Assembly (NCBI GenBank): GCA_964016885.1
Contig: OZ024741.1
Coordinates: forward strand, 389,174,001-389,238,000
Reading direction: 5' to 3'
Length of the DNA stretch: 64,000 nt
Source of the DNA: Eledone cirrhosa
Taxonomy: Eukaryota
A program made the position numbers and the translations under genes. Shown piece after piece: positions 27,129 to 64,000 of this stretch. The stretch's first letter is position 1, and every line of letters begins with the position of its first letter. A model generated the notes under the pieces. It was not told the DNA's origin, made no database searches, and saw only the letters and a list, made by a program, of their open reading frames with translations.

Positions 27129-29182
27129 TGGCACCACTATGAGGAGGGAGAGGCCAGTTGGCTGCACCGAACCCCTCTCATAGCGTAACCACAGTCCAGG
27201 AACCTGGAACTGGATGGCACCGCCAATGAGGAGGGAGAGGCCAGTTGGCTGCACCAAACCCTTCTCACAGCAGAACTGTATTTTGGGATCAAAACCATGT
27301 TTGCAGTGGCACTGCTATGGGGAAGGACAGGCTAGTTGGTTGTGCCAAATTCTTCTCAAAGCAGAATCACAGTTTGGAAGCCTGTGATTGATTGGCCCCA
27401 CCATGAGGATGGACAGGCCAGCTGGACATGCCAAGCCCTTCTCACAGCAGAACTATACAATCACATTTGCAGCGTGGAACCGCTGTGAGGAAAGATAGGC
27501 CATTTGGCTGTACCTAACCTTTCTCACAGCAGAACCACAGTTTGGGAGTCTAGAACTGGATGACACCACTATGAGGAGGGTCAGGCCATTTGGCTGTACC
27601 TAACCTTTCTCACAGCAGAACCACAGTTTGGGAGTCTAGAACTGGATGACACCACTATGAGGAGGGTCAGGCCATTTGGCTGTACCTAACCTTTCTCACA
27701 GCAGAACCACAGTTTGGGAGTCTAGAACTGGATGACACCACTATGAGGAGGGTCAGGCCTGTTGGCTGTACCTAACCTTTCTCACAGCAGAACCACAGCT
27801 TGGGAGTCTAGAACTGGATGACACCACTATGAGGAGGGTCAGGCCATTTGGCTGTACCTAACCTTTCTCACAGCAGAACCACAGTTTGGGAGTCTAGAAC
27901 TGGATGACACCACTATGAGGAGGGTCAGGCTATTTGGCTGTACCTAACCTTTCTCACAGCAGAACCACAGTTTGGGAATCTAGAACTGGATGACACCACT
28001 GTGAGGAGGGTCAGGCCTGTTGGCTGTACCTAACCTTTCTCACAGCAGAACCACAGTTTGGGAGTCTAGAACTGGATGACACCACTATGAGGAGGGTCAT
28101 GCCTGTTGGCTGTAACTAACCTTTCTCACAGCAGAACCACAGTTTGGGAGTCTAGAACTGGATGACACCACTATGAGGAGGGTCAGGCCTGTTGGCTGTA
28201 CCTAATCTTTCTCCCTGCAGAACCACAGTTTGGGAGCCTATAACTGGATGACACCACTGTGAGGAGGGTCAGGCCTGTTGGCTGTACCTAACCTTTCTCA
28301 CAGCAGAACCACAGTTTGGGAGCCTAGAACTGGATGACACCACTGTGAGGAGGGTCAGGCCTGTTGGCTGTACCTAACCTTTCTCCCTGCAGAACCACAG
28401 TTTGGGAGCCTAGAACTAGATGACACCACTGTGAGGAGGGTCAGGCCTGTTGGCTGTACCTAACCTTTCTCACAGCAGAACCACAGTTTGGGAGCCTAGA
28501 ACTGGATGACACCACTGTGAGGAGGGTCAGGCCTGTTGGCTGTACCTAACCTTTCTCCCTGCAGAACCACAGTTTGGGTGTCTAGAACTGGATGACACCA
28601 CTGTGAGGAGGGTCAGGCCTGTTGGCTGTACCTAACCTTTCTCACAGCAGAACCACAGTTTGGGAGCCTAGAACTGGATGACACCACTGTGAGGAGGGTC
28701 AGGCCTGTTGGCTGTACCTAACCTTTCTCCCTGCAGAACCACAGTTTGGGAGCCTAGAACTAGATGACACCACTGTGAGGAGGGTCAGGCCTGTTGGCTG
28801 TACCTAACCTTTCTCACAGCAGAACCACAGTTTGGGAGCCTAGAACTGGATGACACCACTGTGAGGAGGGTCAGGCCTGTTGGCTGTACCTAACCTTTCT
28901 CCCTGCAGAACCACAGTTTGGGTGTCTAGAACTGGATGACACCACTGTGAGGAGGGTCAGGCCATTTGGCTGTACCTAACCTTTCTCACAGCAGAACCAC
29001 AGTTTGGGAGCCTAGAACTGGATGACACCACTGTGAGGAGGGTCAGGCCTGTTGGCTGTACCTAACCTTTCTCCCTGCAGAACCACAGTTTGGGTGTCTA
29101 GAACTGGATGACACCACTGTGAGGAGGGTCAGGCCTGTTGGCTGTACCTAACCTTTCTCCCTGCAGAACCACAGTTTGGGAG
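27129..29182. repeat. 86-bp tandem array, ~23-24 units, each containing a hairpin
   Basis: Period 86 (gcagaacc at 27529, 27615, 27701...); diverged units at the left edge; 172/344-bp higher-order variants. Confidence 0.95.
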
Positions 29183-32900: not shown

Positions 32901-34020
32901 CATAAAAGATGTAATGGGATCACAGGTAAGTTAACTAAGAACATAGATTTTATATGTGGCCGGTGCTCTGGTGCAATAAGTAGCAGCAAGTGCCCACAGA
33001 ATACTAGCTCATTTCATTGCACAGATGGTTCTATAGAAATAGTGGACAGTTTCCGTTACCTGGGTGACAAAATCAGCAGTGGGGGAGGGTACTCTGAAAG
33101 TACAGTAGCTAGAGTCAGAACTGGATGGAAAAAGTTCAGAGAGCTTATACCACTATTAGCCGCTAAAGGCTTCACCCTAAAAATGAAAGGCAGGCTGTAT
33201 GATGCCTGCATACGAACAGCAATGTTACATGGCAGTGAGACCTGGGCATTGTGTGCAGAGGATATAAGCAGACTGGAGAGGAACGAAGCTTGCATGCTCC
33301 GCTGGATGTGTAATAGTAATATACGTGAACGGCAAAGCATAAACGAACTAAGGGAAAAATTAGAAATAAGAGGGATCAGATGTTGTTTACTTGAGAGAAG
33401 ACTACGTTGGTATGGTCACGTGATACGCATGAAAGACGACAGCTGTATAAAAAAGTGCAGGGCAATAAAAATTGACGGTAGCCACGGAGTAGGCAGACCC
33501 AGAAAAACCTGGGACGACTTGATAAATTCCGACCTCACACACTTACACCTCTCCAAGACAATGTCACTGGACCGAGATCTTTGGCGCTACACAGTAATAG
33601 AGAAGACCCGCCTTACCTAAGTACAAAGTGAAACCTACTACAGTCAGTAGGCACCGCTAACAAAATACACCCCATCCCACTACCCCCACCCCATCCACAC
33701 CACCCCTTTCAATGTAAAGTTATGTTGGTACCACAACATCCAGGCCGAAACAAATGAGGTCGTGTATAGGTGTCACGACAAAAAAACACATAGTCCACGC
33801 TGTAATGTGGCCGTGTAGGCAACACGGTAAAAACCTCCCAGTCCACACTGTAAATGTGGTTGGTGTTAGGAAGGGCATCCAACCGTAGAAGACCCGCCAG
33901 ACAGTCCTATGCGAGCAAGACAACCACTCTTGCCTCAAGTGGGAAAACTCCCGTCCAAACCCATGCAAGCGTGGAATATGGACGTTAAACGATGATGATG
34001 ATGATGATGATGATGATGAT
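29980..34020 (+). mobile_element. Near full-length RTE LINE #2 (5' region, APE, RT, PHD-like finger, long 3' region, (GAT)n tail), disabled
   Basis: VGTMNVGTL, CCIQETRW, AGDLNGHVG, SQVDYIL, NYRGIKLI, LLYADDL, WPCSVC..CPKC..WVHKRC..CGRC, GRPRKTW; stops at 30774, 31197 and 32424; 5' boundary approximate. Confidence 0.93.
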
Positions 34021-38107: not shown

Positions 38108-39432
38108 TTCCACATCAACAGTGACATAGACCGCCTTTACTTGAAACGTAAGCAGGGAGGCAGAGGTCTAACATCAGTCCAGACAACATTTGAATGTCGC
38201 ATCATATCTCTCCGATAACATCTACAAACCTCGAAGCGTATGTGCCCGCTTCTCGAGCAAGTCTATCTGCATGAAACAGATAAGATCATGAGAGTTGGGA
38301 AGGAACTCCTTGAGAGATATTCCCTGTGTGATAATCAAAAACTCACACCCAGGGATGTCGCTCAGCAGTATCGCAGTGAATCCATGGATGAAAAACTGCA
38401 TGCTTATCAGCAAAAAATCATGCATGGATATGTTGCCAGGAAGCTCCAGAGTGAGAGTAATATAGATAAGGAAAGTAGTCTATCTTGGACCAACAGCCGC
38501 TATATTGGCTCCCACTTTGAAGGATACGCTTTTGCAAGACAAGAACAGGAGATTAACATGAAATACCTGATTCACAAAAGAGATAGGGATGCAGGCAAAA
38601 CACCTAGATGTGATAACAAGTGCAGACTCTGCAGAACTAATATCGAGGATATCACCCATGTCATCAGCAGCTGTCCAAAGATGTCATCGCGGTACTATCT
38701 ACCTATGAGGCATGATGTAGTGGCCAAAACACTGTACAATGCAGTTCGTAAAAAAGATAGCCCCAATAATAAACACATTAAAAGCTACAACAATGTGGAA
38801 GACATCCATGTACATAATATGAAAGAGTACTGGTGGAATGTTCCAGTAAAAACACCAATAAAATGCAGGCATAACAGACCAGATATTATGATATGGGACA
38901 GGGAGAAGAAAACATGCACAGTAGTGGAAGTTAGCTATCCAGCAGATGCCAATATAATATCAAAGATTAGTGAAAAGGAGAATATTTATGCAGAACTGAT
39001 GAGAAATCTGCAGATACTCCACTGATTACACCTTCAGATTTATGCCTGTGATTATTTGGGCACTGGGGTATGTTAGTAACTGCCTCAATACAAATCTTGA
39101 GAAGCTAGGCTTCACAGGAACAGAAAGAACACAACTAGTTAGGAAACTACAAGTACAATCCATTAATGGAACAGTAAAAATATGTAAAACATTCCAAAAA
39201 ATGTGCATCTAATAACTGCATATACACATGTACAGATACAAAACATGTACACATGCACACATACAATTCAAACATCCAGATCCACACATACAATAACATC
39301 CATATCTACACATGCATACATACATATCTACCTGGTTGATGTGTAAATTCCAATGAGAGAGTCTTGTGTCTATGTTAGAAACCGACTCTCTCTCTATTGG
39401 TAAAACTTTGTGAAATTCTAAAACCAGAAGAA
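38108..39432 (+). mobile_element. R4/Dong-like non-LTR 3' fragment (CCHC finger plus restriction-like endonuclease), family A
   Basis: DIDRLYLKRKQGGRGL, CRLC..EDITHVISSC, RHDVVAK, HNRPDIMIWD, VVEVSYP; (CATA)n on both sides. Confidence 0.88.
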
Positions 39433-39721
39433 CATACATACTTACATACATACATACTTACATATACATACATACATGCGTACATACATAAACGCTAATG
39501 GCGACCTTATGGTCAGTCCGATGATTGAACGTATGTAATTACGGCTTATATGAAGACAACCATATATTGGAAAAGTTGAGCTACATATTGCGGTAAGATT
39601 ACATACAATATTTTTACATAAGTGTTTGAACTGTAAATATATTGCAACACATCTATTTATATGAACGATACATTGATTTTAACATATAAACGTTACATAG
39701 ATTTTGACATATAAATATATC

Positions 39722-40440
39722 CTTTTCCACTGGAACGCAGCTGGATAACGATAGCCTGCGCATCGGCGTTTTCGGATTGGACTCCGGATCTGCGAGCCAT
39801 ATAAATGTCACTGTGGATTCACCGTGGACTCTTTCGGACTCCACCCGCTTTCCTGTCGCCACAGTGCCGGTCGCCTTCCACGCCGTGTTGCCCTCAACGA
39901 GGTCATTAAGCATGGCTTGGACGCTACAGGCTTCCTCTCCAAGCTCGAGCCGGTGGGGCTGGACCGAGGGGATGGCAAAAGGCCAGACGGTATGACCATC
40001 TTCCCGTTCCGCGGTGGCAAACCCGTCGTCTGGGATGCCACTTGCAGCGATACTTTCTCTAACCACAACCTGGTGCAGTCTGCGACTAACCCAGGTACTG
40101 CTGCACGTCGGGCTGAGGAGGCCAAACTGTCCAAGTACCGGTCACTCTCCAACAGGTTCATGGTTGTGCCCTTGGCAGTGGAGACTTCTGGTGTCCTTGG
40201 CCCTAGGGCTACTTCCCTATTCACCTCCATAGGCGCTGAGCTAGCCAGCCGCAGGTATGAACCTTGCGAGTTGGAATGCCTCTTCCAGCGCATCTCCCTT
40301 ACCATCCTCCGGGGAAACGCCTTCTCCATTCTGTCCGCCGGGGCTGTGGGGAGGCCAGCACGTGGGATCCCATTTGCTCACCATGCGGATTAATAGGCAA
40401 AGTTATAAACTATTGTAAATAAATAATACAACGTTGTTAT
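39722..40440 (+). mobile_element. CRE-like non-LTR retrotransposon 3' fragment (Zn finger plus restriction-like endonuclease)
   Basis: CHCG..VDSFGLHPLSC..SAGR..LNEVIK..LEPVGLDRGDGKRPDGMT..VWDATCSDT..EEAKLSKY..PLAVETSG..FQRISLTILRGNA; GC/CpG-rich. Confidence 0.75.
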
Positions 40441-40449
40441 ATTACATTA

Positions 40450-43400
40450 ATAAAGAAATATACTAAGTAACGTTAGAAAACGATTCATTAAAAAGAAAAC
40501 AGAAAAAAGAAAGCGTTTAAAATACAGTTGTAGAATTAAAAACGAGCTGAAAGGAAATATTACTCAAGCTGTGAACAACTTTAAACTTGATTATGACAAA
40601 ACTTTGTCGAAACTTTTAAAGAAGATCATCGTCTATTTTGAAAAATAAATACTAGTGAATAAACGAACTCATTATGGCAAAACGTATAAGTTCCCTTCGA
40701 CCAATCCGCAGCTACAACCATTGTATACAATGGAGCTATGGTCTCAACAAAGATTTATATGAAGCATACAAACAATCAGACCCCAAAAAGTTTGGTTTTA
40801 TGCAGAGGCTAAAAACTTGGTGGAACTCCAAACACCCAGAATTAGACTTTTCCCCAAAACATTTAAATGAACAAGAAAAACGTATCGTTAGATGTAAATT
40901 GATACATCTAACGGAACTGAGTGACACTATTGAAGACAATCATTCCACTTCCATTGACAGACAGAGAGAATGGTCAGCTAAATCTAGCAATAAACAGTAC
41001 ACCAACAACGTAGCTGACATCCACCCCGCTTCCACTGATGAACAGAGAATGGTCAGCTGAATTTTGCAGTGCAGCACACCAACAACGTAGCTGAAATCCA
41101 TAATTCTAGTGTACAAACAGAACACCAAAAATTTGTGGGCATATTACAAGTGATATGGGATGATATGTTTCTAGATGTACGCAGCCTTAATGTGAGTAAC
41201 AGACCATACAACACCAGAATCAGTAAACAACCCACTAAATTGGAATTGGAAGCAGTAAACGAAATATCTGACATTTATCTGAAGGCCACACGATCCAAAG
41301 GTGTGGAAACGACATATGAATTGCTTAATATTTTGTTATATGTTTCACCTATCACATTGCAATCCTATCATAAACAATTAAAACCGCGCAACCAAGATAC
41401 AAACAGAAAGCCCCAATCTCTGTAAATGACACCCCTTCAAAAGAACAGGTTGAGAGCTACTGGAGATCTGTATGGGAAACGGATGACGGATTCAACAGAC
41501 AAACTAAATGGCTAAAAGAACTGGAACAGGACTACTGCTAACATGTCCAGACAAAACAATATGACATAGATGGGCCAATACTGGAAACAGCTCTACAGAA
41601 AATGTCGAATAGGAAATCACCAGGCCCAGACCTCATAACAGGATACTGGTTGAAGAATTTCACTTTCTATCGGCAAGATCTCATACGGCTGTTTACAGAA
41701 ACCATTAAAGGCACACAAGAACTGCCCAGATGGTTATCAACTGCCACTACTCTCCTCATTCCCCAAAATAGCCAAACCACCCATGCTAAAAATTACCGCC
41801 CAATAGCCTGCCAAAACATCATGTATAAATTATATACTGGGTGCCTTAACCTGTTCTTACAGGATCACTGTGCTACCAACAACATTATAACACCTGAGCA
41901 AGCTGGTGGAAGGAGGGAGGTGTGGGGTTGCATAGATCACCTACTAACTAATAAAATGATTCAAGAAAAAACAACAAAGAATCGCAGAAACATGACTGTG
42001 GTGTGGCTGGACTATCAAAAAGCATTTGATAGAGTACCTCATGGGTGGATTGTTAAGGCTTTGCAGTTAGCCAAAGTCCCACAACCACTGGTAGCTGCTG
42101 TTGAACGTCTGACCAAGAACTGGTGCACCAATTTGATCCTTAGAGGTGATAAGGAGCATGTTAAGACTGATAAGATACATTACCAGAAGGGCATCTTTCA
42201 GGGTGATAGCTTGTCAGTGCTACACTTCGTTCTCTCACTAAATCCACTATCTTACCTACTCAGGAAACAATGACAAAGAAGTGGGTCCAGAAGTATCTCC
42301 CATCTTTTCTTTGTTGATGACCTGAAGTTGTATGGGCCAAATATCAATGACATCGAGAAACAATTGGACCTCATTACACAATTTTCAACAGACATCAAAA
42401 TGAAATTTGGTGAGTCCAAGTGTGCATATTTGACAGTAAAACGTGGAAGAGCTGTGCCCTCTAGGAATCTAGAGATGAACGGCCTGACAATACAACCACT
42501 ACAGTCAGGTGACAACTACAGATATCTTGGACAGGATGAGAATGTCAGGTATGATGGACCCATAAATAAGGAGAGAACCAGAACTGAATACCTCAGAAGA
42601 GTAAAGAAAATATGGTCATCAGAACTGTCAGCGATACTTATGCTGTGCCAATTCTAATGCCAACATTTGGCCTGCTGAACTGGTCATTGCAAGAACTAAG
42701 TGAGATGGATGTTAGAACTCGCAAACTTCTCAGAGTTACTGGGAACTTTAACATCAATGGTGATGTGGACAGGCTATACTTCTCACGCAAGGAAGGTGGC
42801 CGGAGTCTAAAATCCATATTAACATCATATGAGACCCGGATAGTAACGCTGAAGCAACATCTTCAACAGAGGAAAAAGGTTGGCAACCATCTTGCCCAGG
42901 TTTATGAGCATGAAGAAAAAATATCATTAGGATAGCCACTGATCTGGAGGAGAGATATGGAATAAAGCCTGATATAAATCTCTCACCCAGAGAAATCGGA
43001 AGACCCTATTCAATGTTCAAACAAGATGAAAAAATTGACCAATTTACAGAAAAAGTTGTGCATGGATACTTGAGACGTAAAACACAGACCATAGAGGGGA
43101 TAAAACACTCAAAAAGCCTGGCATGGACTTCCGGCAAGTTTATGACATCACACCTTGAGGGATATCTCTATGCAATACAGGAACAAGAACTCCCTGCCAA
43201 ATATCTGCCGCACAATAGAGGAGCGCCATCAGCTGACAATAAATGTAGGCTATGTAAAACAAAGATCGAAGATGTAAGCCACATTTTTGCCAGCTGCGGA
43301 AGAATGTCAGCTCGCTACTACCTCCCCATGGGACACGATGGGATAGCTAGAACCATCTGGAACGCACTTCGGAAAACAAAATTAAAAACTAACAAGGAAG

Positions 43401-43896
43401 AATATATTGAGACAGATGGCACTAAGGAATACTGGTGGAACCTGAAAATAAAAACTGCCACCAAATTAAAGCACAACCGGCCTGATATTGTTGTTTGGGA
43501 CCACACATTGAAAACGTGTTCTGTTGTGGAGATCAGCTGCCCACTTGATGTAAACGTTGTCAGAAAAATACAGGAGAAGGAGGACATCTACGGACCATTG
43601 ATGAGGAGTTTACAAATCCAGTATCCAAGATACACCTTTAGCTTCATACCCATCATTATTGGAGCTACGGGTTATATACCAACCCGCTTGGACCAATGTA
43701 TAACTGAACTTGGATTTGCGGACAAAGAGCGCAGCTCCCTAATTCATAGTCTACAAATGGCTGCGATAGCTGGCACCTTCAAAATTTGCAAAACATTCTT
43801 GCGATTCAAGGGATAACAATTTCTTTTCTTTTACAACCTTGCTACCAGGAAGGTGGCCGGTCAAAAAATATACTCGAAATTAAGAGAAAGAGATAA
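40450..43896 (+). mobile_element. R4/Dong-like non-LTR element, family B, long copy with RT, CCHC and RLE; disabled
   Basis: KSPGPDLITGYWLK, NYRPIAC, WLDYQKAFDRVPH, GIFQGDSLS, HLFFVDDLKLY, DVDRLY..GGR, CRLC..H..C, HNRPDIV, VEISCP; ends at (CATA)n; 5' boundary approximate. Confidence 0.9.
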
Positions 43897-45598: not shown

Positions 45599-45800
45599 TA
45601 CACACATACATACATACATATATACACACATACATACATACACACATACATACATACACACATACATACATACACACATACATACGTACATACACACATA
45701 CATACACACATACATATACACATACACACATACATACATACACACATACATAACATACATACATACATACACGCATACATACACACATACATATATACAT

Positions 45801-46252
45801 GGTAGCTGCCAACTCGTTTTCGAGTACGGCCACTACTTTATATCCATGTAGGAGAACCCCTGCCGATGCGCTGAATGAGTCCAGCCAGCGACTTGAAAAC
45901 TCTGGTACAAACACTACACTTGTGACAATTATTGACACATAGTGTTGGGCCCATGGTACCATGCGACGACAAGTGCAGAGAGATCTCCAGATATAAAGCA
46001 ATGCCTGTGCCGTGAAGCTTTTATAGTGAGCAAAGGCACTACACAAAGCCAGTCCCACTCTCTTAACCAAGATGATATTTACCAAAAAGAAGAACAAGTC
46101 AACATCATTGGATACCATCAGGGTTGCAGGTGTTATATCAGAGTTTTCCTTCTTCTAGAATTCTGCCTTGACAAAGGCTAAGGGGTCATCTCTCCCGGTG
46201 ATTTTGGATGGCCATTGACTCTTAAGTGCTCCTTTGCCCTTTGACAGGTTTG
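45801..46252 (-). mobile_element. Non-coding RTE-tailed element, copy 1 (5'-truncated)
   Basis: Near-identical to 47408-47860; (CATA)n at the 3' end. Confidence 0.8.
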
Positions 46253-46261
46253 TACATACAT

Positions 46262-46838
46262 GGTGGTGGCTGCCAACTCGTTTTCGAGTACGGCCACTAC
46301 TTTATATCCATGTAGGAGAACGCCTACCGATGCGCTGAACGAGTGTGATTTTTTAGTCCAGCCAGCGTATTGAAAACTCTGGTACAAACACTAACTTGTG
46401 ACAATTATTGACACATAGTGCTGGGCCCATGGTACCATGTGAGGACAAGTGCAGAGAGATCTCCAGATATAAAGCAATGCCTATGCCGTGAAGCTTTTAT
46501 AGTGAGCAAAGGCACTGCACAAAGCCAGTCCCACTCTCTTAACCAAGATGATATTTACCAAAAAGAAGAACAAGTCAACATCATTGGATACCATCACTGT
46601 TGCAGGTGTTATATCAGAGTTTTCCTTCTCCTAGAATTCTGCCTTGACAAAGGCTAAGTGGTCATCTCTCCCGGTGATTTTGGATGGCCATTGACTCTTA
46701 AGAGCTCCTTTGCCCTTTGACAGGTTTTGTTTTTAGTCCTGCGGGATGTCCAAAGTCACCCTCCTCACCAAGAAACCTTGGTGGGGTTGCCAGTTTAGTC
46801 GCCAACGTCCCGACCATGAGACAGGTTGTACTGGGATA
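46262..46838 (-). mobile_element. Non-coding RTE-tailed element, copy 2
   Basis: Near-identical to 47408-47975. Confidence 0.8.
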
Positions 46839-48007: not shown

Positions 48008-48604
48008 ATACATACATACATACATACATACATACATACATACATACATACATACATAGAAATGAATAAAGAAATGTCGTAGAAATATTTTCTTCGTTTA
48101 TTGTCATTGGTGCTGTTTTATGTGGGTGTATTTGTGTGCGCGTGGTTTTGTGTTCGTGAATGAGTATATTTGCATGTGCGTATATGAGTGTATGTGCGTA
48201 TTGTGGGTATGGTGTGGTGTGCGGTGGCCGGAAGCTGGGGAATGCTCGACCGAAAGAGTGCTTGACCGGAAGGGTGCTTGGCCGGAAGGGTGCTCGACCG
48301 GAGGGCCAGCAGATCGGTCTCTCTCTAGTGGTGACCAGGAAAGGTGTGGACGCGAGTTTTGCAGCTCTCGGGTGATAATGAGTTGGACGCACGTGGAAGA
48401 GGAGAAACCAGCCATGGGATTTAGCGGCGCCTATGAAAAGCGTAAGTGAGATAGATTTTTCTAACAACAAGCTATTTCGGGGCTGGAAACAGATCTGATT
48501 GAAAAAAAACAAACAAAAAAAAACTTTCTCGAAAACAAAGCTACTGGAAAGACAGAGAGGAGTCTGTTGTTGTTTTTATTACGTACCGCAAGACAAATTA
48601 GGAT

Positions 48605-49366
48605 ATGGCGACGAGACTACGAACGAGCGAAGCGATTAGGGCATTTACCGGTGAAGGCGATGTTGTCGCTTGGCTGCGAAAAGTCCGGCTGGTCGCAAGC
48701 TTACAGAAGATAGAAGATGTGGCTGGCCTCATGGCACTGTACTTCGAGGGGGACGCGTTGGTACTCTTCCTTGAGTTGGATGAACACAGCCAAAGGGATG
48801 CGCAAAAGATTGAGCGGCGCATGATGGAAGCGTTCGCGGAGGGACCGTTAGCCGCTTTTGCTAAGCTGGCAAGAATTAGATGGAACGGTGAACGCGTTGA
48901 CATTTTCGCAGCGGAAATACGGCGATTGGCCATGTTGGCTGGGTATCAGGTGGAATGCGAACGCACGGTGCGGTTGGCGTTCATAAATGGATTTCCAGAC
49001 GACTTGGCGGTGAAACTGCAGCAAGTCCCGGGTTACAAAGAAATGGAGATGTGTTCACTGGTGGAGCAAGCCCGTATCATAGCAGAAGATGCCAAGAAAA
49101 GTGTCGCGGCGATAACAACCACAGAGGCTCAAGACAGCTGGCAGAGAAATGGTGAAAAGGAGGCAATCACGGCACGCGGTCGCCCGCGAACGTTTAGAGG
49201 TCGCTGTTTTAGGTGCCAGGGCCCGCACATGGCGAGAGACTGTAGAGCATCAAGGCCGGAAATAATATGCTACCGGTGTAAGCGACCAGGCCACATCGCT
49301 ACTAACTGCGACCAGGGAAGCGATCCAAGGGGAACTACTGCGCCGGTAGTTGCCCCTTACGAGTAG
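48605..49366 (+). CDS. gag: Gag-like protein with two CCHC-type zinc knuckles
   Basis: Intact 253-aa ORF; CFRCQGPHMARDC and CYRCKRPGHIATNC. Confidence 0.85.
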   Translation: MATRLRTSEAIRAFTGEGDVVAWLRKVRLVASLQKIEDVAGLMALYFEGDALVLFLELDEHSQRDAQKIERRMMEAFAEGPLAAFAKLARIRWNGERVDIFAAEIRRLAMLAGYQVECERTVRLAFINGFPDDLAVKLQQVPGYKEMEMCSLVEQARIIAEDAKKSVAAITTTEAQDSWQRNGEKEAITARGRPRTFRGRCFRCQGPHMARDCRASRPEIICYRCKRPGHIATNCDQGSDPRGTTAPVVAPYE

Positions 49367-49377
49367 AGGCGCTGCCC

Positions 49378-49899
49378 GTGGTGGAAGTCTTCGTGAGGGG
49401 AAAGCCACAGCGAGCCCTCGTGAACACGGGCTGTACGACGACACTGGTGACCGCGGGGGTGGCGCAGAGGTGGCGAGGGAAGAGCAGCGTAAGGGCAGTC
49501 GACGGCAGGAAAATTGAATACCGAGGTCGCAGCGAGGTGGAGAAGGGCGTACGGGGAAGGGAAATAAGGCTTTCTGCCATCGTAGTTGACAACGTGGTGG
49601 ATGGGATCGGCGTGGTTATGGGCATGGATGCAATTGGCCGGCTAGGAGGCGTCACAGTGAACAACGTCGGTGTGTCGTTTGGCGGCGCTGCATCGGTATG
49701 CGCTGTGAGTACGCGACAGGAGAACCAGAAGGCCCACGAGGAGAAATACCCCGCTTACACTGTGCAGGACAAAGACTTCAAGGCCGTGTTCGATGGACAG
49801 CGATGGGTTGTTGAGTGGTACTGGAAGGAAGAACCATCAACACTGAAAACCAAAGTGGGCTGCTATCAACACGCATTGAGAGGTAGAGAGATGGATTGA
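49378..49899 (+). pseudogene. Retroviral-type aspartic protease and start of pol, catalytic D replaced by N, truncated
   Basis: ALVNTGCTTTLV (vs DTG), VVMGMDAI; lies in the -1 frame relative to gag. Confidence 0.8.
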
Positions 49900-51312: not shown

Positions 51313-51492
51313 ACAGAATCGGTAGAGCGTCGAACATGTTTTGCGGCATATAGTTACGTCCCTTTACGATCTGAGTTCAAATCCCGCCGAGGTTAACATT
51401 GCCTTTCATCCTTTCGGGATCGATAAAATAAAGTACCAGTAATGAACTGGGATAATTGCTGGCTTTGTGCCAAAAGTAGAAACAATTACTAT
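51313..51492 (+). mobile_element. tRNA-type SINE
   Basis: cagaatcggtagagcgtcg..gagttcaaatcccgccgaggttaac..ctttcatcctttcggg..aagtaccagt..tgtgccaaaagtagaaacaatta. Confidence 0.8.
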
Positions 51493-51527
51493 TACGAGAT
51501 GAGAGTGACGTCTTCTCCCTCTTTCTG

Positions 51528-51598
<71 letters not shown>

Positions 51599-51819
51599 AA
51601 ACAAATGACGTCTTTTTCTCTCTCTATCTATGTAAACAACTTTCTCTTGGCGTTCCTCCTTTCTCTATATAGGATGAGGGTGACGTCATAACTTTCTGCC
51701 TATATAACTCATTCCATCACCTCGAAAACACACGACGTTCCCTTTTCTCTCTCTATCTATGTACATATCTCTCACTTCGTGCTGCCCTCTCTATATAAAG
51801 TGAGCGTGACAGACGGACC

Positions 51820-54800
51820 GACGGACAGACAGACAGTGCTCTTATTATATAGACTAGACGAGGGCGACGGACAGACAGACAGTGCTCTTATTGTATAGAC
51901 TAGACGAGGGCGACGGACAGACAGACAGTGCTCTTATTATATAGACTAGACGAGGGCAACAGACAGACAGACAGTGCTCTTATTATATAGACTAGACGAG
52001 GCTGACGGACAGAGAGACAGTGCTCTTATTATATAGACTAGACGAGGGCGACGGACAGACAGACAGTGCTCTTATTATATAGACTAGACGAGGGCGACAG
52101 ACAGACAGACAGTGCTCTTATTATATAGACTAGACGAGGGCGACAGACAGACAGACAGTGCTTTTATTATATAGACTAGACGAGGCTGACGGACAGACAG
52201 ACAGTGCTCTTATTGTATAGACTAGACGAGGGCGACGGACAGACAGAAAGTGCTCTTATTATATAGACTAGACGAGGGCGACAGACAGACAGACAGTGCT
52301 TTTATTATATAGACTAGACGAGGCCGACGGACAGACAGACAGTGCTCTTATTGTATAGACTAGACGAGGGCGACGGACAGACAGACAGTGCTCTTATTAT
52401 ATAGACTAGACGAGGGCGACGGACAGACAGACAGTGCTCTTATTATATAGACTAGACGAGGCTGACGGACAGAGAGACAGTGCTCTTATTATATAGACTA
52501 GACGAGGGCGACGGACAGACAGACAGTGCTCTTATTATATAGACTAGACGAGGCTGACGGACAGAGAGACAGTGCTCTTATTATATAGACTAGACGAGGG
52601 CGACGGACAGACAGACAGTGCTCTTATTATATAGACTAGACGAGGGCGACAGACAGACAGACAGTGCTCTTATTATATAGACTAGACGAGGGCGACAGAC
52701 AGACAGACAGTGCTCTTATTATATAGACTAGACGAGGGCGACAGACAGACAGACAGTGCTTTTATTATATAGACTAGACGAGGCTGACGGACAGACAGAC
52801 AGTGCTCTTATTGTATAGACTAGACGAGGGCGACGGACAGACAGAAAGTGCTCTTATTATATAGACTAGACGAGGGCGACAGACAGACAGACAGTGCTTT
52901 TATTATATAGACTAGACGAGGCCGACGGACAGACAGACAGTGCTCTTATTGTATAGACTAGACGAGGGCGATGGACAGACAGACAGTGCTCTTATTATAT
53001 AGACTAGACGAGGGCGACAGACAGACAGACAGTGCTTTTATTATATAGACTAGACGAGGCTGACGGACAGACAGACAGTGCTCTTATTGTATAGACTAGA
53101 CGAGGGCGACGGACAGACAGACAGTGCTCTTATTATATAGACTAGACGAGGGCGACAGACAGACAGACAGTGCTCTTATTATATAGACTAGACGAGGGCG
53201 ACAGACAGACAGACAGTGCTTTTATTATATAGACTAGACGAGGCTGACGGACAGACAGACAGTGCTCTTATTGTATAGACTAGACGAGGGCGACGGACAG
53301 ACAGACAGTGCTCTTATTATATAGACTAGACGAGGGCGACAGACAGACAGACAGTGCTCTTATTATATAGACTAGACGAGGGCGACAGACAGACAGACAG
53401 TGCTTTTATTATATAGACTAGACGAGGCTGACGGACAGACAGACAGTGCTCTTATTGTATAGACTAGACGAGGGCGACGGACAGACAGAAAGTGCTCTTA
53501 TTATATAGACTAGACGAGGGCGACAGACAGACAGACAGTGCTTTTATTATATAGACTAGACGAGGCCGACGGACAGACAGACAGTGCTCTTATTGTATAG
53601 ACTAGACGAGGGCGACGGACAGACAGACAGTGCTCTTATTATATAGACTAGACGAGGGCGACGGACAGACAGACAGTGCTCTTATTATATAGACTAGACG
53701 AGGGCGACGTACAGACAGAGTATATATATATATTACACACACAGAAATGTATATATATTTCTATGTGTATATATATATTACACACACAGAAATGTATATA
53801 TATTTCTGTGCGTATATATATATATATTTCTGTGTGTGTATATATATATTACACACACACAGAAATGTATATATGTTTCTGTAGCACTCCTCAATTCCCC
53901 CCTCTCTCCCTCCCGTTATCCCCCTCTTGTAGTTTCTCTCTCTACGCGTGCGCAAAAAACATTCGCACGTGCGCACGTGTTTCCCCTGTCGGACAGACAG
54001 AGAAATTGCTGGTTATATATTATAAGGAGACGAGGGCGACGGACAGACAGACAGTGCTCTTATTATATAGACTAGACGAGGCTGACGGACAGACAGACAG
54101 TGCTCTTATTATATAGACTAGACGAGGCTGAAGGACAGACAGACAGTGCTCTTATTATATAGACTAGACGAGGGCGACAGACAGACAGTGCTTTTATTAT
54201 ATAGACTAGACGAGAGCGACGGACAGACAGACAGTGCTCTTATTATATAGACTAGACGAGGCTGACGGACAGACAGACACTGCTTTTATTATATAGACTA
54301 GACGAGGCTGACGGACAGACAGACAGTGCTCTTATTATATAGACTAGACGAGGGCGACGGACAGACAGACAGTGCTCTTATTATATAGACTAGACGAGGG
54401 CGACGGACAGACAGACAGTGCTTTTATTATATAGACTAGACGAGGCTGACGGACAGACAGACAGTGATCTTATTATATAGACTAGACGAGGGCGACGGAC
54501 AGACAGACAGTGCTCTTATTATATAGACTAGACGAGGCTGACGGACAGACAGACAGTGCTTTTATTATATAGACTAGACGAGGGCGACGGACAGACAGAC
54601 AGTGCTCTTATTATATAGACTAGACGAGGGCGACGGACAGACAGACAGTGCTCTTATTATATAGACTAGACGAGGCTGACGGACAGACAGACAGTGCTCT
54701 TATTATATAGACTAGACGAGGGCGACGGACAGACAGACAGTGCTTTTATTATATAGACTAGACGAGGGCGACGGACAGACAGACAGTGCTCTTATTATAT

Positions 54801-55612
54801 AGACTAGACGAGGGCGACGGACAGACAGACAGTGCTCTTATTATATAGACTAGACGAGGGCGACGGACAGACAGACAGTGCTCTTATTATATAGACTAGA
54901 CGAGGCTGACGGACAGACAGACAGTGCTCTTATTATATAGACTAGACGAGGCTGACAGACAGACAGTGCTCTTATTATATAGACTAGACGAGGGCGACGG
55001 ACAGACAGAGCTCTTATTATATAGACTAGACGAGGGCGACGGACACACAGACAGTGCTCTTATTATATAGACTAAACGAGGCAGACGGACAGACAGACAG
55101 TGCTCTTATTATATAGACTAAACGAGGCCGACGGACAGACAGACAGTGCTCTTATTATATAGACTAAACGAGGCAGACGGACAGACAGACAGTGCTCTTA
55201 TTATATAGACTAAACGAGGCCGACGGACAGACAGTGCTCTTATTATATAGACTAGACGAGGGCGACGGACAGACAGAGCTCTTATTATATAGACTAGACG
55301 AGGCCGACGGACAGACAGACAGTGCTCTTATTATATAGACTAGACGAGGGCGACAGACAGACAGTGCTCTTATTGTATAGACTAGACGAGGGCGACGGAC
55401 AGACAGACAGTGCTCTTTTTATATAGACTAGACGAGGCCGACGGACAGACAGACAGTGCTCTTATTATATAGATTAGACGAGGCCGACGGACAGACAGAC
55501 AGTGCACTTATTATATAGACTAGACGAGGCTGACGGACAGACAGACAGTGCACTTATTATATAGACTAGACGAGAGCGACAGACAGACAGTGCTTTTATT
55601 ATATAGACTAGA
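51820..55612 (-). repeat. 46-bp satellite (mini-Helitron-like units), interrupted by a 378-bp longer unit at 53694-54071
   Basis: Unit on -: TCTATATAATAAGAGCACTGTCTGTCTGTCCGTCGCCCTCGTCTAG; period 46 (42/50 where the GACA count varies). Confidence 0.95.
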
Positions 55613-56218
55613 CTAGCAGAAAACCACCTGGTGGGCGGTTTTCTGCTAGCAAATCTAGTGTATATACTGATATTGTTGAGATTTGGATGAGAAATGTTTT
55701 CGGCACCACATGTTCACCGTCTCTCGATGTGTCTTTTATGCATGTATAAATATATATGTTATCTACAAGGTGAAATCTTTGAAATAAATATATGTTAAAA
55801 CGAAAAAGGAGAAAAAGAGATTAGTGACGGAAATATAAACGTTATGATACATAAACGTTATGATATAACGATGGAAATATATCTTCAAATGGTCCTTGGC
55901 ATGGTGTCAAGTCAGAACCGCCTCGAACTGGTTACTTCTGGCTTGTGCAAGGTGTCTCTATAGCAACCAGCGATTCCCTCGGCCTCAGTGACCAAAGTCA
56001 GTGGAGATGGGAAGGTAATGTTTCTATAGCGACAGTGTTTCTCTTCGTAGTACCAAAGTGGAGAAAGGAAGGGGAAGGTAATATTTCTGTAGCACCTACA
56101 TTTGAGTTTTAGAGAAGGACAGACAGACAGACAGACAGACAAACAGAGAAATGTCCATATATTTCTGTGTGTGTGTATATATATATATATTACACACACA
56201 GAAATGTATATATATTTC

Positions 56219-56249
<31 letters not shown>

Positions 56250-56688
56250 TACACACACAGAAATGTATATATATTTCTGTGTGTATATATATATATATAT
56301 TACACACACAGAAATGTATATATATTTCTGTGTGTATATATATATATATATTACACACACAGAAATGTATATATATTTCTTAGAACAAAATTATTATTAA
56401 TGTTTTGCTGTTCATAACAATTGGAATTGAAAATTACTTTTGAAATTATTAGTTATTTTACTAATGCTTAGATATGTAAAAATGAAGCAATGTTTCTAAT
56501 AATTGTTTCTACTTTTGGCACAAGGCCAGCAATTTCCCAGCACATTACTAGTACTTTATTTTATCGACCCCGTGAGGATCAAAGGCAAAGTTAACCTCGG
56601 CGGTATTTGAACCCAGACCGTAAAGGGACGTAACTCCATGCTATGAAGCATATATATATATACACACACAGAAATTTATATATATTTC

Positions 56689-56721
<33 letters not shown>

Positions 56722-57060
56722 TACACACACAGAAATGTATATATATTTCTGTGTGTATATATATATTACACACACAGAAATATATATATATTTCTGTGTG
56801 TATATATATATATATTTCTGTGTGTGTATATATATATTACACACACACAGAAATGTATATATGTTTCTGTAGCACTCCTCAATTCCCCCTCTCTCTCTCT
56901 CCCGCTATCCTCCTCTTGTAGTTTCTCTCTCTACGCGTGCGCAAAAAACATTCGCACGTGCGCACGTGTTTCCCCTGTCGGACAGACAGAGAAATTGCTG
57001 GTTATATATTATAAGGAGTCGAGGGCGACTGACAGACAGACAGTGCTCTTATTATATAGA
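55613..57060 (-). mobile_element. Non-autonomous Helitron-like element embedded in the satellite
   Basis: 5' TCTATATAATAA at 57060, 3' CTAG at 55613-55616 with a GC-containing palindrome at 55613-55649; internal palindromic minisatellite; nested SINE. Confidence 0.65.
56500..56650 (-). mobile_element. tRNA-type SINE nested in the Helitron-like element
   Basis: Matches 29685-29835. Confidence 0.8.
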
Positions 57061-60000
57061 CTAGACGAGGGCGACGGACAGACAGACAGTGCTCTTATTA
57101 TATAGACTAGACGAGGCTGACGGACAGACAGACAGTGCTCTTATTATATAGACTAGACGAGGCTGACGGACAGACAGACAGTGCTCTTATTATATAGACT
57201 AGACGAGGCTGACGGATAGACAGACAGTGCTCTTATTATATAGACTAGACGAGGGCGACGGACAGACAGACAGTGCTCTTATTATATAGACTAGACGAGG
57301 CTGACGGACAGACAGACAGTGCTCTTATTATATAGACTAGACGAGGCTGATGGACAGACAGACAGTGCTCTTATTATATAGACTAGACGAGGGCGACGGA
57401 CAGACAGACAGTGCTTTTATTATATAGACTAGACGAGGGCGACGTACAGACAGACAGTGCTTTTATTATATAGACTAGACGAGGGCGACGGACAGACAGA
57501 CAGTGCTTTTATTATATAGACAAGACGAGGCTGACGGACAGACAGACAGTGCTCTTATTATATAGACTAGACGAGGGCGACGGACAGACAGACAGACAGT
57601 GCTCTTATTATATAGACTAGACGAGGCCGACAGACAGACAGACAGTGCTCTTATTATATAGAATAGACGAGGGCGACGGACAGACAGACAGACAGTGCTC
57701 TTATTATATAGACTAGACGAGGGCGACGGACAGACAGACAGTGCTCTTATTATATAGACTAGACTAGGCCGACGGACAGACAGACACTGCTCTTATTATA
57801 TAGACTAGACGAGGGCGACGGACAGACAGACAGGGCTTTTATTATATAGACTAGACGAGGCTGACGGACAGACAGACAGTGCTCTTATTATATAGACTAG
57901 ACGAGGGCGACGGACAGACAGACAGTGCTTTTATTATATAGACTAGACGAGGCTGACGGACAGACAGACAGTGCTCTTATTATATAGACTAGACGAGGCT
58001 GACGGACAGACAGACAGTGCTCTTATTATATAGACTAGACGAGGCTGACGGACAGACAGTGCTCTATTTATATAGACTAGACGAGGCTGACGGACAGACA
58101 GACAGTGCTCTTATTATATAGACTAGACGAGGGCGACGGACAGACAGACAGTTCTCTTATTATATAGACTAGACGAGGGCGATGGACAGACAGACAGACA
58201 GTGCTCTTATTATATAGACTAGACGAGGCTGACGGACAGACAGACAGTGCTCTTATTATATAGACTAGACGAGGGCGACGGACAGACAGACAGTGCTCTT
58301 ATTATATAGACTAGACGAAGCTGACGGACAGACAGACAGTGCTCTTATTATATAGACTAGACGAGGCTGACGGACAGACAGACAGTGCTCTTATTATATA
58401 GACTAGACGAGGGCGACGGACAGACAGACAGACAGACAGTGCTCTTATTATATAGACTAGACGAGGCTGACGGACAGACAGACAGTGCTCTTATTATATA
58501 GACTAGACGAGGCTGACGGACAGATAGACAGTGCTCTTATTATATAGACTAGACGAGGCTGACGGACAGACAGACAGTGCTCTTATTATATAGACTAGAC
58601 GAGGGCAACGGACAGACAGACAGTGCTCTTATTATATAGACTAGACGAGGCTGATGGACAGACAGACAGTGCTCTTATTATATAGACTAGACGAGGGCGA
58701 CGGACAGACAGACAGTGCTTTTATTATATAGACTAGACGAGGGCGACAGACAGACAGACAGTGCTTTTATTATATAGACTAGACGAGGGCGACGTACAGA
58801 CAGACAGTGCTCTTATTATATAGACTAGACGAGGCTGACGGACAGACAGACAGTGCTCTTATTATATAGACTAGACGAGGGCGACGGACAGACAGACAGT
58901 GCTCTTATTATATAGACTAGACGAGGGCGACGGACAGACAGACAGTGCTTTTATTATATAGACTAGACGAGGGCGACGGACAGACAGACAATGCTCTTAT
59001 TATATAGACTAGACGAGGCCGACAGACAGACAGACAGTGCTCTTATTATATAGACTAGACGAGGGCGACGGCCAGACAGACAGACAGTGCTCTTATTATA
59101 TAGACTAGACGAGGCTGACTGACAGACAGACAGTGCTCTTATTATATAGACTAGACGAGGCTGACGGACAGACAGACAGTGCTCTTATTATATAGACTAG
59201 ACGAGGCCGACAGACAGACAGACAGTGCTCTTATTATATAGACAAGACGAGGGCGACGGACAGACAGACAGATAGTGCTCTTATTATATAGACTAGACGA
59301 GGCTGACGGACAGACAGACAGTGCTCTTATTATATAGACTAGACGAAGCTGACGGACAGACAGACAGTGCTCTTATTATATAGACTAGACGAGGGCGACG
59401 GACAGACAGACAGTCCTTTTATTATATAGACTAGACGAGGCTGACGGACAGACAGACAGTGCTCTTATTATATAGACTAGACGAGGGCGACGGACAGACA
59501 GACAGTGCTTTTATTATATAGACTAGACGAGGCTTACGGACAGACAGACAGTGCTCTTATTATATAGACTAGACGAGGCTGACGGACAGACAGACAGTGC
59601 TCTTATTATATAGACTAGACGAGGCTGACGGACAGACAGACAGTGCTCTTATTATATAGACTAGACGAGGCTGACGGACAGACACACAGTGCTCTTATTA
59701 TATAGACTAGACGAGGCTGACGGACAGACAGACAGTGCTCTTATTATATAGACTAGACGAGGCTGACGGACAGACAGACAGTGCTCTTATTATATAGACT
59801 AGACGAGGGCGACGGACAGACAGACAGACAGTGCTCTTATTATATAGACTAGACGAGGCTGACGGACAGACAGACAGTGCTCTTATTATATAGACTAGAC
59901 GAGGCTGACGGACAGACAGACAGTGCTCTTATTATATAGACTAGACGAGGGCGACGGACAGAGAGACAGTGCTTTTATTATATAGACTAGACGAGGGCGA

Positions 60001-63000
60001 CGGACAGACAGACAGTGCTCTTATTATATAGACTAGACGTGGCTGACGGATAGACAGACAGTGCTCTTATTATATAGACTAGACGAGGCTGACGGACAGA
60101 CAGACAGTGCTCTTATTATATAGACTAGACGAGGGCGACGGACAGACAGACAGTGCTTTTATTATATAGACTAGACGAGGCGACGTACAGACAGACAGTG
60201 CTTTTATTATATAGACTAGACGAGGGCGACGGACAGACAGACAGTGCTCTTATTATATAGACAAGACGAGGCTGACGGACAGACAGACAGTGCTCTTATT
60301 ATATAGACTAGTCGAGGGCGACGGACAGACAGACAGACAGTGCTCTTATTATATAGACTAGACGAGGCTGACGGACAGACAGACAGTGCTCTTATTGTAT
60401 AGACAAGACGAGGCTGACGGACAGACAGACAGTGCTCTTATTATATAGACTAGACGAGGCCGACAGACAGACAGACAGTGCTCTTATTATATAGACTAGA
60501 CGATGGCGACGGACAGGCAGACAGACAGTGCTCTTATTATATAGACTAGACGAGGGCGACGGACAGACAGACAGTGCTCTTATTATATAGACTAGACGAG
60601 GCCGACGGACAGACAGACACTGCTCGTATTATATAGACTAGACGAGGCTGACGGACAGACAGACAGTGCTCTTATTATATAGACTAGAGGAGGCTGACGG
60701 ACAGACAGACAGTTCTCTTATTATATAGACTAGACGAGGGCGATGGACAGACAGACAGACAGTGCTCTTATTATATAGACTAGACGAGGCTGACGGACAG
60801 ACAGACAGTGCTCTTATTATATAGACTAGACGAGGGCGACGGACAGACAGACAGTGCTCTTATTATATAGACTAGACGAGGCTGATGGACAGACAGACAG
60901 TGCTCTTATTATATAGACTAGACGAGGCTGACGGACAGACAGACAGTGCTCTTATTATATAGACTAGACGAGGGCGACGGACAGACAGACAGTGCTCTTA
61001 TTATATAGACTAGACGAGGCTGACGGACAGACAGACAGTGCTCTTATTATATAGACTAGACGAGGCTGACGGACAGATAGACAGTGCTCTTATTATATAG
61101 ACTAGACGAGGCTGACGGACAGACAGACAGTGCTCTTATTATATAGACTAGACGAGGGCGACGGACAGACAGACAGTTCTCTTATTATATAGACTAGACG
61201 AGGGCGATGGACAGACAGACAGACAGTGCTCTTATTATATAGACTAGACGAGGCTGACGGACAGACAGACAGTGCTCTTATTATATAGACTAGACGAGGG
61301 CGACGGACAGACAGACAGTGCTCTTATTATATAGACTAGACGAAGCTGACGGACAGACAGACAGTGCTCTTATTATATAGACTAGACGAGGCTGACGGAC
61401 AGACAGACAGTGCTCTTATTATATAGACTAGACGAGGGCGACGGACAGACAGACAGACAGTGCTCTTATTATATAGACTAGACGAGGCTGACGGACAGAC
61501 AGACAGTGCTCTTATTATATAGACTAGACGAGGCTGACGGACAGATAGACAGTGCTCTTATTATATAGACTAGACGAGGCTGACGGACAGACAGACAGTG
61601 CTCTTATTATATAGACTAGACGAGGGCGACGGACAGACAGACAGTGCTCTTATTATATAGACTAGACGAGGGCGACGGACAGACAGACAGTGCTTTTATT
61701 ATATAGACTAGACGAGGGCGACGGACAGACAGACAGTGCTCTTATTATATAGACTAGACGAGGCCGACAGACAGACAGACAGTGCTCTTATTATATAGAC
61801 TAGACGAGGGCGACGGCCAGACAGACAGACAGTGCTCTTATTATATAGACTAGACGAGGCTGACGGACAGACAGACAGTGCTCTTATTATATAGACTAGA
61901 CGAGGCCGACAGACAGACAGACAGTGCTCTTATTATATAGACTAGACGAGGGCGACGGACAGACAGACAGCCAGTGCTCTCATTATATAGACTAGACGAG
62001 GCTGACGGACAGACAGACAGTGCTCTTATTATATAGACTAGACGAAGCTGACGGACAGACAGACAGTGCTCTTATTATATAGACTAGACGAGGGCGACGG
62101 ACAGACAGACAGTGCTTTTATTATATAGACTAGACGAGGCTGACGGACAGACAGACAGTGCTCTTATTATATAGACTAGACGAGGGCGACGGACAGACAG
62201 ACAGTGCTTTTATTATATAGACTAGACGAGGCTGACGGACAGACAGACAGTGCTCTTATTATATAGACTAGACGAGGCTGACGGACAGACAGACAGTGCT
62301 CTTATTATATAGACTAGACGAGGCTGAGGGACAGACAGAGCAGTGCTCTTATTATATAGACTAGACGAGGCTGACAGACAGACAGACAGTGCTCTTATTA
62401 TATAGACTAGACGAGGCTGACGGACAGACAGACAGTGCTCTTATTATATAGACTAGACGAGGCTGACGGACAGACAGACAGTGCTCTTATTATATAGACT
62501 AGACGAGGGCGAAGGACAGACAGACAGACAGTGCTCTTATTATATAGACTAGACGAGGCTGACGGACAGACAGACAGTGCTCTTATTATATAGACTAGAC
62601 GAGGCTGACGGACAGACAGACAGTGCTCTTATTATATAGACTAGACGTGGCTGACGGATAGACAGACAGTGCTCTTATTATATAGACTAGACGAGGGCGA
62701 CGGACAGACAGACATTGCTCTTATTATATAGACTAGACGAGGCTGACGGACAGACAGACAGTGCTCTTATTATATAGACTAGACGAGGCTGACGGACAGA
62801 CAGACAGTGCTCTTATTATATAGACTAGACGAGGGCGACGGACAGACAGACAGTGCTTTTATTATATAGACTAGACGAGGGCGACGTACAGACAGACAGT
62901 GCTTTTATTATATAGACTAGACGAGGGCGACGGACAGACAGACAGTGCTCTTATTATATAGACAAGACGAGGCTGACGGACAGACAGACAGTGCTCTTAT

Positions 63001-64000
63001 TATATAGACTAGACGAGGGCGACGGACAGACAGACAGACAGTGCTCTTATTATATAGACTAGACGAGGCTGACGGACAGACAGACAGTGCTCTTATTGTA
63101 TAGACTAGACGAGGCTGACGGACAGACAGACAGTGCTCTTATTATATAGACTAGACGAGGCCGACAGACAGACAGACAGTGCTCTTATTATATAGACTAG
63201 ACGAGGGCGACGGACAGACAGACAGTGCTCTTATTATATAGACTAGACGAGGCCGACGGACAGACAGACACTGCTCGTATTATATAGACTAGACGAGGCT
63301 GACGGACAGACAGACAGTGCTCTTATTATATAGACTAGACGAGGCTGACGGACAGACAGACAGTGCTCTTATTATATAGACTAGACGAGGCTGACGGACA
63401 GACAGACAGTGCTCTTATTATATAGACTAGACGAGGGCGACGGACAGACAGACAGTGCTCTTATTATATAGACTAGACGAGGCTGATGGACAGACAGACA
63501 CTGCTCGTATTATATAGACTAGACGAGGCTGACGGACAGACAGACAGTGCTCTTATTATATAGACTAGACGAGGCTGACGGACAGACAGACAGTTCTCTT
63601 ATTATATAGACTAGACGAGGGCGATGGACAGACAGACAGACAGTGCTCTTATTATATAGACTAGACGAGGCTGACGGACAGACAGACAGTGCTCTTATTA
63701 TATAGACTAGACGAGGGCGACGGACAGACAGACAGTGCTTTTATTATATAGACTAGACGAGGCTGACGGACAGACAGACAGTGCTCTTATTATATAGACT
63801 AGACGAGGGCGACGGACAGACAGACAGTGCTTTTATTATATAGACTAGACGAGGCTGACGGACAGACAGACAGTGCTCTTATTATATAGACTAGACGAGG
63901 CTGACGGACAGACAGACAGTGCTCTTATTATATAGACTAGACGAGGCTGAGGGACAGACAGACAGTGCTCTTATTATATAGACTAGACGAGGCTGACGGA
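57061..64000 (-). repeat. 46-bp satellite, ~150 units, continuing past the window end
   Basis: Seen directly; gggc/ggct/ggcc and ctct/cttt variants. Confidence 0.97.

Follow-up and report, generated by a model that had tools for sequence, protein, structure and literature searches.

A 64,000 nt stretch of the Eledone cirrhosa genome (assembly GCA_964016885.1, contig OZ024741.1; G000:C2:389,174,001-389,238,000), referred to here as the window and numbered from its first base, ends in a satellite array of 46 bp units, most of which, read on the minus strand, begin with TC and end with CTAG. Both ends of the unit are true Helitron termini, and the array is enclosed by two old full-length copies, A and B, of one short Helitron family. 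The unit is probably the tail of A joined to the head of B, a junction that would have been duplicated through a short microhomology and enlarged by unequal exchange and slippage. A preliminary description of the sequence had instead proposed a concatemer of minute mobile Helitrons made by rolling-circle replication, and this part of it was not borne out.

The 46 bp array

The 46 bp period was found by Tandem Repeats Finder (TRF) over the whole of 51819-64000, and examination of seven adjoining stretches showed that the array continues for approximately 53 kb beyond the window, up to G000:C2:389,291,108, giving a total of about 65 kb. There are 226 unit anchors in the window and 1,204 in the whole array, corresponding to 223 and 1,200 complete ordinary units, the latter totalling 55,199 bp, in line with the earlier estimate of more than 200 copies in the window. 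Units were cut at the TC/CTAG motif using a fuzzy pattern, and this must be borne in mind in reading the terminal motif counts, namely TC at the start together with CTAG at the end in 212/223 units in the window and 1,160/1,200 overall, with the 5' TC in 1,193/1,200 and the 3' CTAG (CTRR) in 1,167/1,200. The units are joined as CTAG|TC, as had been described, and are 46 bp long in 1,108 cases, 42 bp in 46, 50 bp in 40 and of other lengths in six, the 42, 50 and 54 bp forms departing from 46 bp in TCTG steps. They fall into 185 distinct types and the commonest, which accounts for 251 of the 1,200 units (33 of the 223 in the window), is identical to the unit reported previously.

The limits of the array needed revision. 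It had been taken to run uninterrupted from 51820 to 64000. The period does so, but three Helitron-derived inserts break the array, those of 0.31 kb and 1.4 kb within the window and one of 8.2 kb beyond it (Table 1), and the TC at 51853 opens element B and not a 46 bp unit. On the minus strand, the order is a hairpin-CTAG end of the type found in a second Helitron family (family 2, below), A (313 bp), the 1,200 units with the three inserts and finally B (359 bp).

The 46 bp repeat is real. Short-read contigs of run X1 cover the unit junction to a summed depth of approximately 42,600, compared to 8.6 on the single-copy flank. This argues against an assembly artefact, though summed depth does not give copy number and the assembly may have been made from the X1 sample. 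RAD runs X21 and X22 had no reads on the junction, which is uninformative. In two further organisms (organisms B and C), the junction depth was 8-9 versus 2,189 and 547 beside the junction, and no depth on the junction was seen in organisms D and E, hinting that the satellite may be restricted to this species. The array is probably functionless satellite DNA restricted to this species.

Both ends of the unit are Helitron termini

A search of the genome with element B produced 627 candidates (the best 40 of the 627 were scored), and 59 loci of this family, designated family 1 here, were examined. After removal of two duplicates and two loci without a body, 55 remained. The 5' end could be located in 37 of them and was preceded by A in 32 and started with TC in 34, the latter count being partly built in as the pattern used favours TC. 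The 3' end could be located in 39, every one of which reads CTAG|T, and in a separate set CTAG was followed by T in 29 of 30 cases. Ten of the 12 copies with both ends lack a target site duplication (TSD), and the other two have only AT matches of 3 and 7 nt. Dispersed copies are thus bounded as A|TC…CTAG|T, and are about 320 bp in size, most being between 190 and 500 bp and the shortest with both ends 192 bp. As A|TC…CTAG|T is the Helitron insertion rule given in PMC4778049, family 1 is a non-autonomous Helitron, and both ends of the 46 bp unit are derived from its termini. An alternative in which the tail of the unit is an internal motif of the parent was rejected because the dispersed copies terminate there with CTAG|T. 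Hence, the preliminary description was right to see Helitron termini in the unit, and a family with the same 5' end, the lack of which it had named as grounds for giving up the idea, exists in the form of the 627 candidates.

The subterminal stem of family 1, GAGGG/CCCTC, is weak: the mean over the last 40 nt is -3.1 kcal/mol, and the stem is unbroken in 6 of 39 copies. The preliminary description had suggested a search for an autonomous element, encoding the RepHel transposase, with the same 5' end. None with family 1 ends was present among 27 loci fetched (seven from family 2 and 20 others), which came from 127 scored of 3,812 candidates.

Some further features of family 1 were noted. The family is made up of internal repeats, each of which closes with a motif resembling the 3' end (L087, L095, L106 and element B itself), and some copies stop at the first internal motif that reads CTAG, giving lengths from 192 bp upwards. 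A span of 3.4 kb between family 1 5' and 3' ends on contig C28 turned out to consist of two separate short copies. At G000:C4:94,662,249-94,833,399, six identical family 1 5' ends lie about 30-40 kb apart on one strand and represent a large tandem duplication.

The unit combines the tail of A with the head of B

The two full family 1 copies that enclose the array are on the same strand, with B downstream and A upstream, at the far end of the array. Immediately before A comes another Helitron, of which the hairpin-CTAG end is seen. The unit is composed of the first ~35 nt and the last ~16 nt of family 1, which overlap at CGTCG. Its 5' half is the first 35-36 nt of B, and over 35 nt it differs by no edits from B, by eight from A and by 3-12 from the dispersed copies (n = 37). 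One edit separates its tail from that of A and four from that of B, and as 14 of the 39 dispersed tails are also one edit away, this distance alone is not distinctive. Both the unit and A include a CTCG variant in the tail, which was in none of the 39 dispersed 3' ends fetched and in only one of 67 pattern matches genome-wide, that one being an ordinary full-length family 1 copy. One unit type, represented 45 times, consists of exactly 36 nt from B and 16 nt from A with a 6 nt overlap, CGTCGG, and CGTCG(G) is found 16 nt before the end of A and 31 nt after the start of B. The array is bounded at this internal overlap with the flanking parents and not by free TC and CTAG ends placed in an A|T site. 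Similarity is 80% between A and B and 84-85% between either of them and the dispersed copies, whereas the pairwise difference among units is 5.3%. Hence, A and B appear to be separate old insertions and the expansion to be younger.

We consider it probable that the unit arose from A and B by microhomology-mediated duplication and that the array grew by unequal exchange and slippage. Two separate insertions would have made A and B neighbours, abutting being common among the Helitrons of this genome, and slippage or repair between the copies of CGTCG(G), 46 bp apart, could then have duplicated the A|B junction to give a product that reads TC…CTAG by coincidence. The array would have been built up long after family 1 had stopped moving, by multi-unit duplication or by repeated exchange out of register, and family 2 Helitrons would have inserted during this growth and been partly duplicated along with the array.

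Several points weigh against this interpretation. The commonest unit (251 copies) is one base off the present tail of A and matches the family majority at that base, from which it follows that the tail of A has changed since and that the original overlap was possibly 5 bases. The tail of A or the head of B could also have been overwritten later from the array. A family 1 dimer without a satellite was not found elsewhere in the assembly using an exact pattern, and an A|B allele in the ancestral, unexpanded state was not encountered. The enzyme responsible for the first copies cannot be read from sequence, as excision of a 46 nt circle through the CGTCG(G) microhomology would leave identical letters. 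A Helitron transposase was active during the lifetime of the array (see below), and the exact searches of the assembly by which copies of the unit were sought elsewhere could miss diverged monomers or unassembled arrays.

Growth of the array in blocks

When the units were coded by type, 807 of 1,203 were inside duplicated blocks of at least 10 units, the longest being 87 units at an offset of 138, and 35 long diagonal matches were detected, compared to none in three shuffles. The inserts bear on the same question. Those of 8.2 kb and 1.4 kb are 52 kb apart in the same phase of the unit, have in common four private variants in their last 175 bases that are absent from 19 other copies, and are followed by the same two rare unit types, the diagnostic motif of each of which occurs in only 3 of the 1,200 units. 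The 0.31 kb insert is a truncated duplicate of the 5' part of the 1.4 kb insert and rejoins the unit in mid-unit phase, within the TCTG tract. The block duplications and the insert junctions fit unequal exchange and microhomology repair, which correspond to stage two of the model in PMC5932611, though the enzymatic route is an inference. The preliminary description had allowed for unequal crossover in the later growth, and these data favour it.

It was considered whether the 1.4 kb insert might be a local deletion product of the 8.2 kb insert, and this was rejected as its deletion joint is common to a young dispersed family, with ~100% identity over 211 bp in 40 of 40 scored copies (the best 40 of 1,570 candidates). 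Only the last ~175 bp of the 1.4 kb insert descend from the lineage of the 8.2 kb insert and the rest belongs to the dispersed family, which makes a recombinant the best reading of this insert.

The 8.2 kb insert includes the RepHel domains Helitron_like_N (E 5e-39) and PIF1 (E 4e-51), together with a weak match to an Ulp1-type peptidase C48 domain, below the Pfam cut-off, in the N-terminal piece. A relative elsewhere, at locus L137, carries a frame that is open over 1,458 codons. The 5' end of the 8.2 kb insert is similar to, though not the same as, that of the unit, with 27 of 34 aligned columns matching. As this RepHel sits in the first unit of the array, the transposase was present after the array began.

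Table 1. Location of the array, of the flanking element B and of the Helitron-derived inserts (window coordinates unless a contig is given)
Feature	Position	Strand	Details
Element B, full-length old family 1 copy, 359 bp	51495..51853	minus	TC start at 51853; 3' end CTCG|T, not CTAG|T
46 bp satellite array, part within the window	51819..64000	minus	TRF, unit anchors and unit typing
0.31 kb truncated duplicate of the 5' part of the 1.4 kb insert	53720..54030	minus	97.7% identical
1.4 kb young non-autonomous family 2 Helitron	55613..57019	minus	In unit at G|TCTAG; strong 3' hairpin-CTAG, -16.6 kcal/mol
8.2 kb RepHel Helitron in the first satellite unit	G000:C2:389,282,889-389,291,067 (L025:4900-10000, L026:1-3070)	minus	Frame in four pieces

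Mobility of the unit

If the unit were a mobile mini-Helitron, a terminator hairpin and independent insertions at A|T sites would be expected, and it has neither. The DNA fold of the unit is -0.4 kcal/mol, as it retains only the right arm (CCCTC) of the weak stem of its parent, consistent with the remark in the preliminary description that a clear subterminal hairpin was lacking. An 18-mer across the CTAG|TC joint has 1,060 exact matches in the genome, and 1,060 were counted inside the array. The unit tail followed by non-unit sequence, as expected for monomers, gave three pattern matches genome-wide, short derivatives with the family majority tail gave nine and family majority dimers nine, all of them inside the array. 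Thus, the dispersed monomers and short arrays that the preliminary description had proposed looking for were not found, and neither was a second array, in exact searches of the assembly. Copies of a transposed unit would be expected elsewhere as, according to PMC4778049, Helraiser transposition involves no local hopping. Conservation at the six terminal TC and CTAG positions does not significantly exceed that at the remaining 40 (p = 0.15 for all units and 0.12 for distinct units), though the units are not independent of one another. Nine further CTAGTCTAG sites were considered as possible signs of read-through re-insertion, but there are no 51 bp units and the sites were attributed to base changes.

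Could rolling-circle replication have made the array?

A role for the transposase can be envisaged without abandoning the junction of A and B as the origin of the unit. In this case, the first rounds of amplification would have been driven in place by a Helitron transposase, via either a nick at the TC of the unit or a hairpin-free 46 nt junction circle giving a concatemer that returned to the same locus, with recombination taking over later. The unit does retain ~35 nt of the 5' end, 16 nt of the 3' end and a precise CTAG|TC joint, and PMC4778049 reports that Helraiser cleavage needs only the terminal 40 nt and that circles with joined ends transpose without a hairpin. A RepHel in the first unit, with a 5' end resembling that of the unit, and the presence in every unit of TCTA starts, where family 2 tends to land, point the same way. 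However, no copy of the unit has landed elsewhere according to the exact searches, the growth steps that can be measured are multi-unit blocks, the termini show no extra conservation, a RepHel with the family 1 5' end was not among the 27 loci, and Helraiser does not hop locally. We regard this route as unlikely.

A more elaborate form of the same idea, which we judge distinctly unlikely, is that head-to-tail chains are built by a Helitron family that homes to Helitron 5' ends, and that a 46 nt junction piece of this chain served as a hairpin-less rolling-circle template, copied by the resident RepHel and re-inserted into its own locus. The return would be due to the TCTA target preferred by this transposase, which is on offer in every unit. 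If true, the 46 nt junction piece would be the smallest Helitron replicon known.

In a strict form of the idea put forward in the preliminary description, the unit would be a 46 bp deletion derivative of a single family 1 copy, and a concatemer of this mobile mini-Helitron would have been inserted between A and B. The TC…CTAG structure of nearly all units is in keeping with this, the unit can formally be described as family 1 with an internal deletion at CGTCG, and rolling-circle replication has been invoked for the tandem Helitron arrays of plants (Xiong et al. 2016, as cited in PMC12628747 and PMC11934779). Against it, a concatemer made from one template and placed at a new site is not what is seen, as the head is from B, the tail is from A and the array is still between the two; chance or later conversion would be needed to account for the match to the private head of B and to the private tail of A. 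Moreover, the exact searches gave no monomers elsewhere, the shortest family 1 copy with both ends is 192 bp long, and the unit has no hairpin. An origin of this kind is very unlikely. Finally, although it is general knowledge that assemblers can mis-size long satellites, it is extremely improbable that the array was made or inflated in length by assembly, given the 185 unit types in nested, imperfect blocks and the very high summed junction depth in independent short-read contigs.

Family 2 copies abut other Helitrons

In family 2, the young family with 1,570 candidates to which the inserts in the array belong, the hairpin-CTAG end directly precedes the 5' end of another Helitron in all 15 non-autonomous copies fetched and in all five RepHel copies for which the 3' end was in the fetched stretch (five of the seven fetched), hence in 20/20 overall. 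The family 2 side is 97% alike between copies, while the next 150 bases are 63% alike at the median with none of 105 pairs at 95% or above, which points to insertion of family 2 before older and varied elements, not to a single composite. An unbiased pattern for the family 2 end gave 4,919 matches. When the first 100 were counted by hand, 41 were followed by T and in 26 of these 41 a Helitron-like start came next; about seven of the other 15 resemble the other arm of the hairpin, also by hand count. The bias towards Helitron 5' ends is therefore strong but not absolute and, judged from the sequences, family 2 appears to target them, with a tendency to insert at TCTA starts. The inserts in the array and the chain upstream of A are accounted for by this behaviour. 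The abutment of A and B is not directly accounted for, since the same behaviour is not seen in family 1.

Abutting Helitrons are known in bats (PMC4778049, section 12), where abutment and two other causes together account for new 3' ends in 39 of 395 copies, whereas here all of the 20 family 2 copies fetched abut the 5' end of another Helitron. In maize, Helitrons insert close to other Helitrons, as cited in a passage of PMC12477314. Our literature search did not find Helitron 5' end targeting of equal strength, though subscription papers and the supplements of PMC4778049 may bear on this. If confirmed by an assay, this would make family 2, with its open RepHel frame, a naturally occurring example of rolling-circle transposition with a target bias.

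Two further observations concern RepHel elements. The autonomous family 2 element (L137, L139, L140, L141 and L142) is a fixed composite, in which the inner hairpin-CTAG end is followed by 4 bases and then by a further, short Helitron from which the outer 3' end is derived, a structure that read-through capture would be expected to produce. Another RepHel gave dozens of matches on contigs C20, C27, C19 and C16, mostly in a frame of 1,036 codons, and many of these are ~70-210 kb apart on one strand, which suggests a Helitron inside very large tandem repeats.

Comparison with known systems

Satellites can arise from transposable element dimers, when two insertions at one site create a head-to-tail dimer that is expanded by unequal exchange (McGurk and Barbash 2018, PMC5932611). 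The locus described here is similar in that two distinct insertions on the same strand, A and B, are head to tail and in that later inserts in the array expand too. However, in that study the whole element (hobo, R1) is repeated with a TSD at the joint, whereas here only 46 bp around the joint is repeated without a TSD, and the parents A and B survive as single copies at the ends of the array.

Rolling-circle arrays in plants (Xiong, Dooner and Du 2016, via PMC12628747 and PMC11934779) also consist of head-to-tail Helitron-derived units. They are formed from truncated Helitrons, often with many 5' ends and one 3' end, at new sites, unlike the present array, which has both termini in each unit, two parents and one locus only. 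Oyster Helentrons (PMC7492417) and Drosophila DINE-TR1 (PMC9659126) likewise include a Helitron-flanked satellite derived from a non-autonomous rolling-circle element, but their units are central repeats spread inside elements, whereas here the unit is made of termini and is confined to a single locus. Local tandem amplification in an animal has also been described for HSymSHlR, a subtelomeric 372 bp Helitron-like repeat of Hydractinia (PMC11934779), which has a far longer unit and occupies megabases at many chromosome ends, in contrast to the single interstitial locus of 65 kb, ~27 Mb from the contig end, found here.

No report of a satellite derived solely from a Helitron head-to-tail junction was found in the titles, abstract beginnings and passages searched, though subscription papers may bear on this. 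The array behaves like a satellite of the transposon dimer type in which only the junction is repeated. Its value lies in the fact that both parents, the 5-6 bp microhomology and the later block duplications can still be read at one locus, when such histories are usually inferred from decayed remains. It also carries a caution, as a TC…CTAG concatemer is not by itself evidence of rolling-circle replication.

Other features of the window

Directly after the 3' end of B, at 51330-51490, is a short interspersed repeat of very high copy number, for which several runs show depths in the millions, and related pieces are also found within both Helitron inserts. Elsewhere in the window, TRF identified an 86 bp tandem repeat at 27124-29182 (~20 copies, 95% match, with a higher period of 258 bp) and a 476 bp tandem duplication at 45800-46727 (two copies, 93%). 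Broken frames at 48602-49896, 20196-23201, 31200-33617 and 38219-43813 resemble, by eye, what we take to be fragments of long terminal repeat (LTR) element gag-protease and long interspersed nuclear element (LINE) reverse transcriptase genes.

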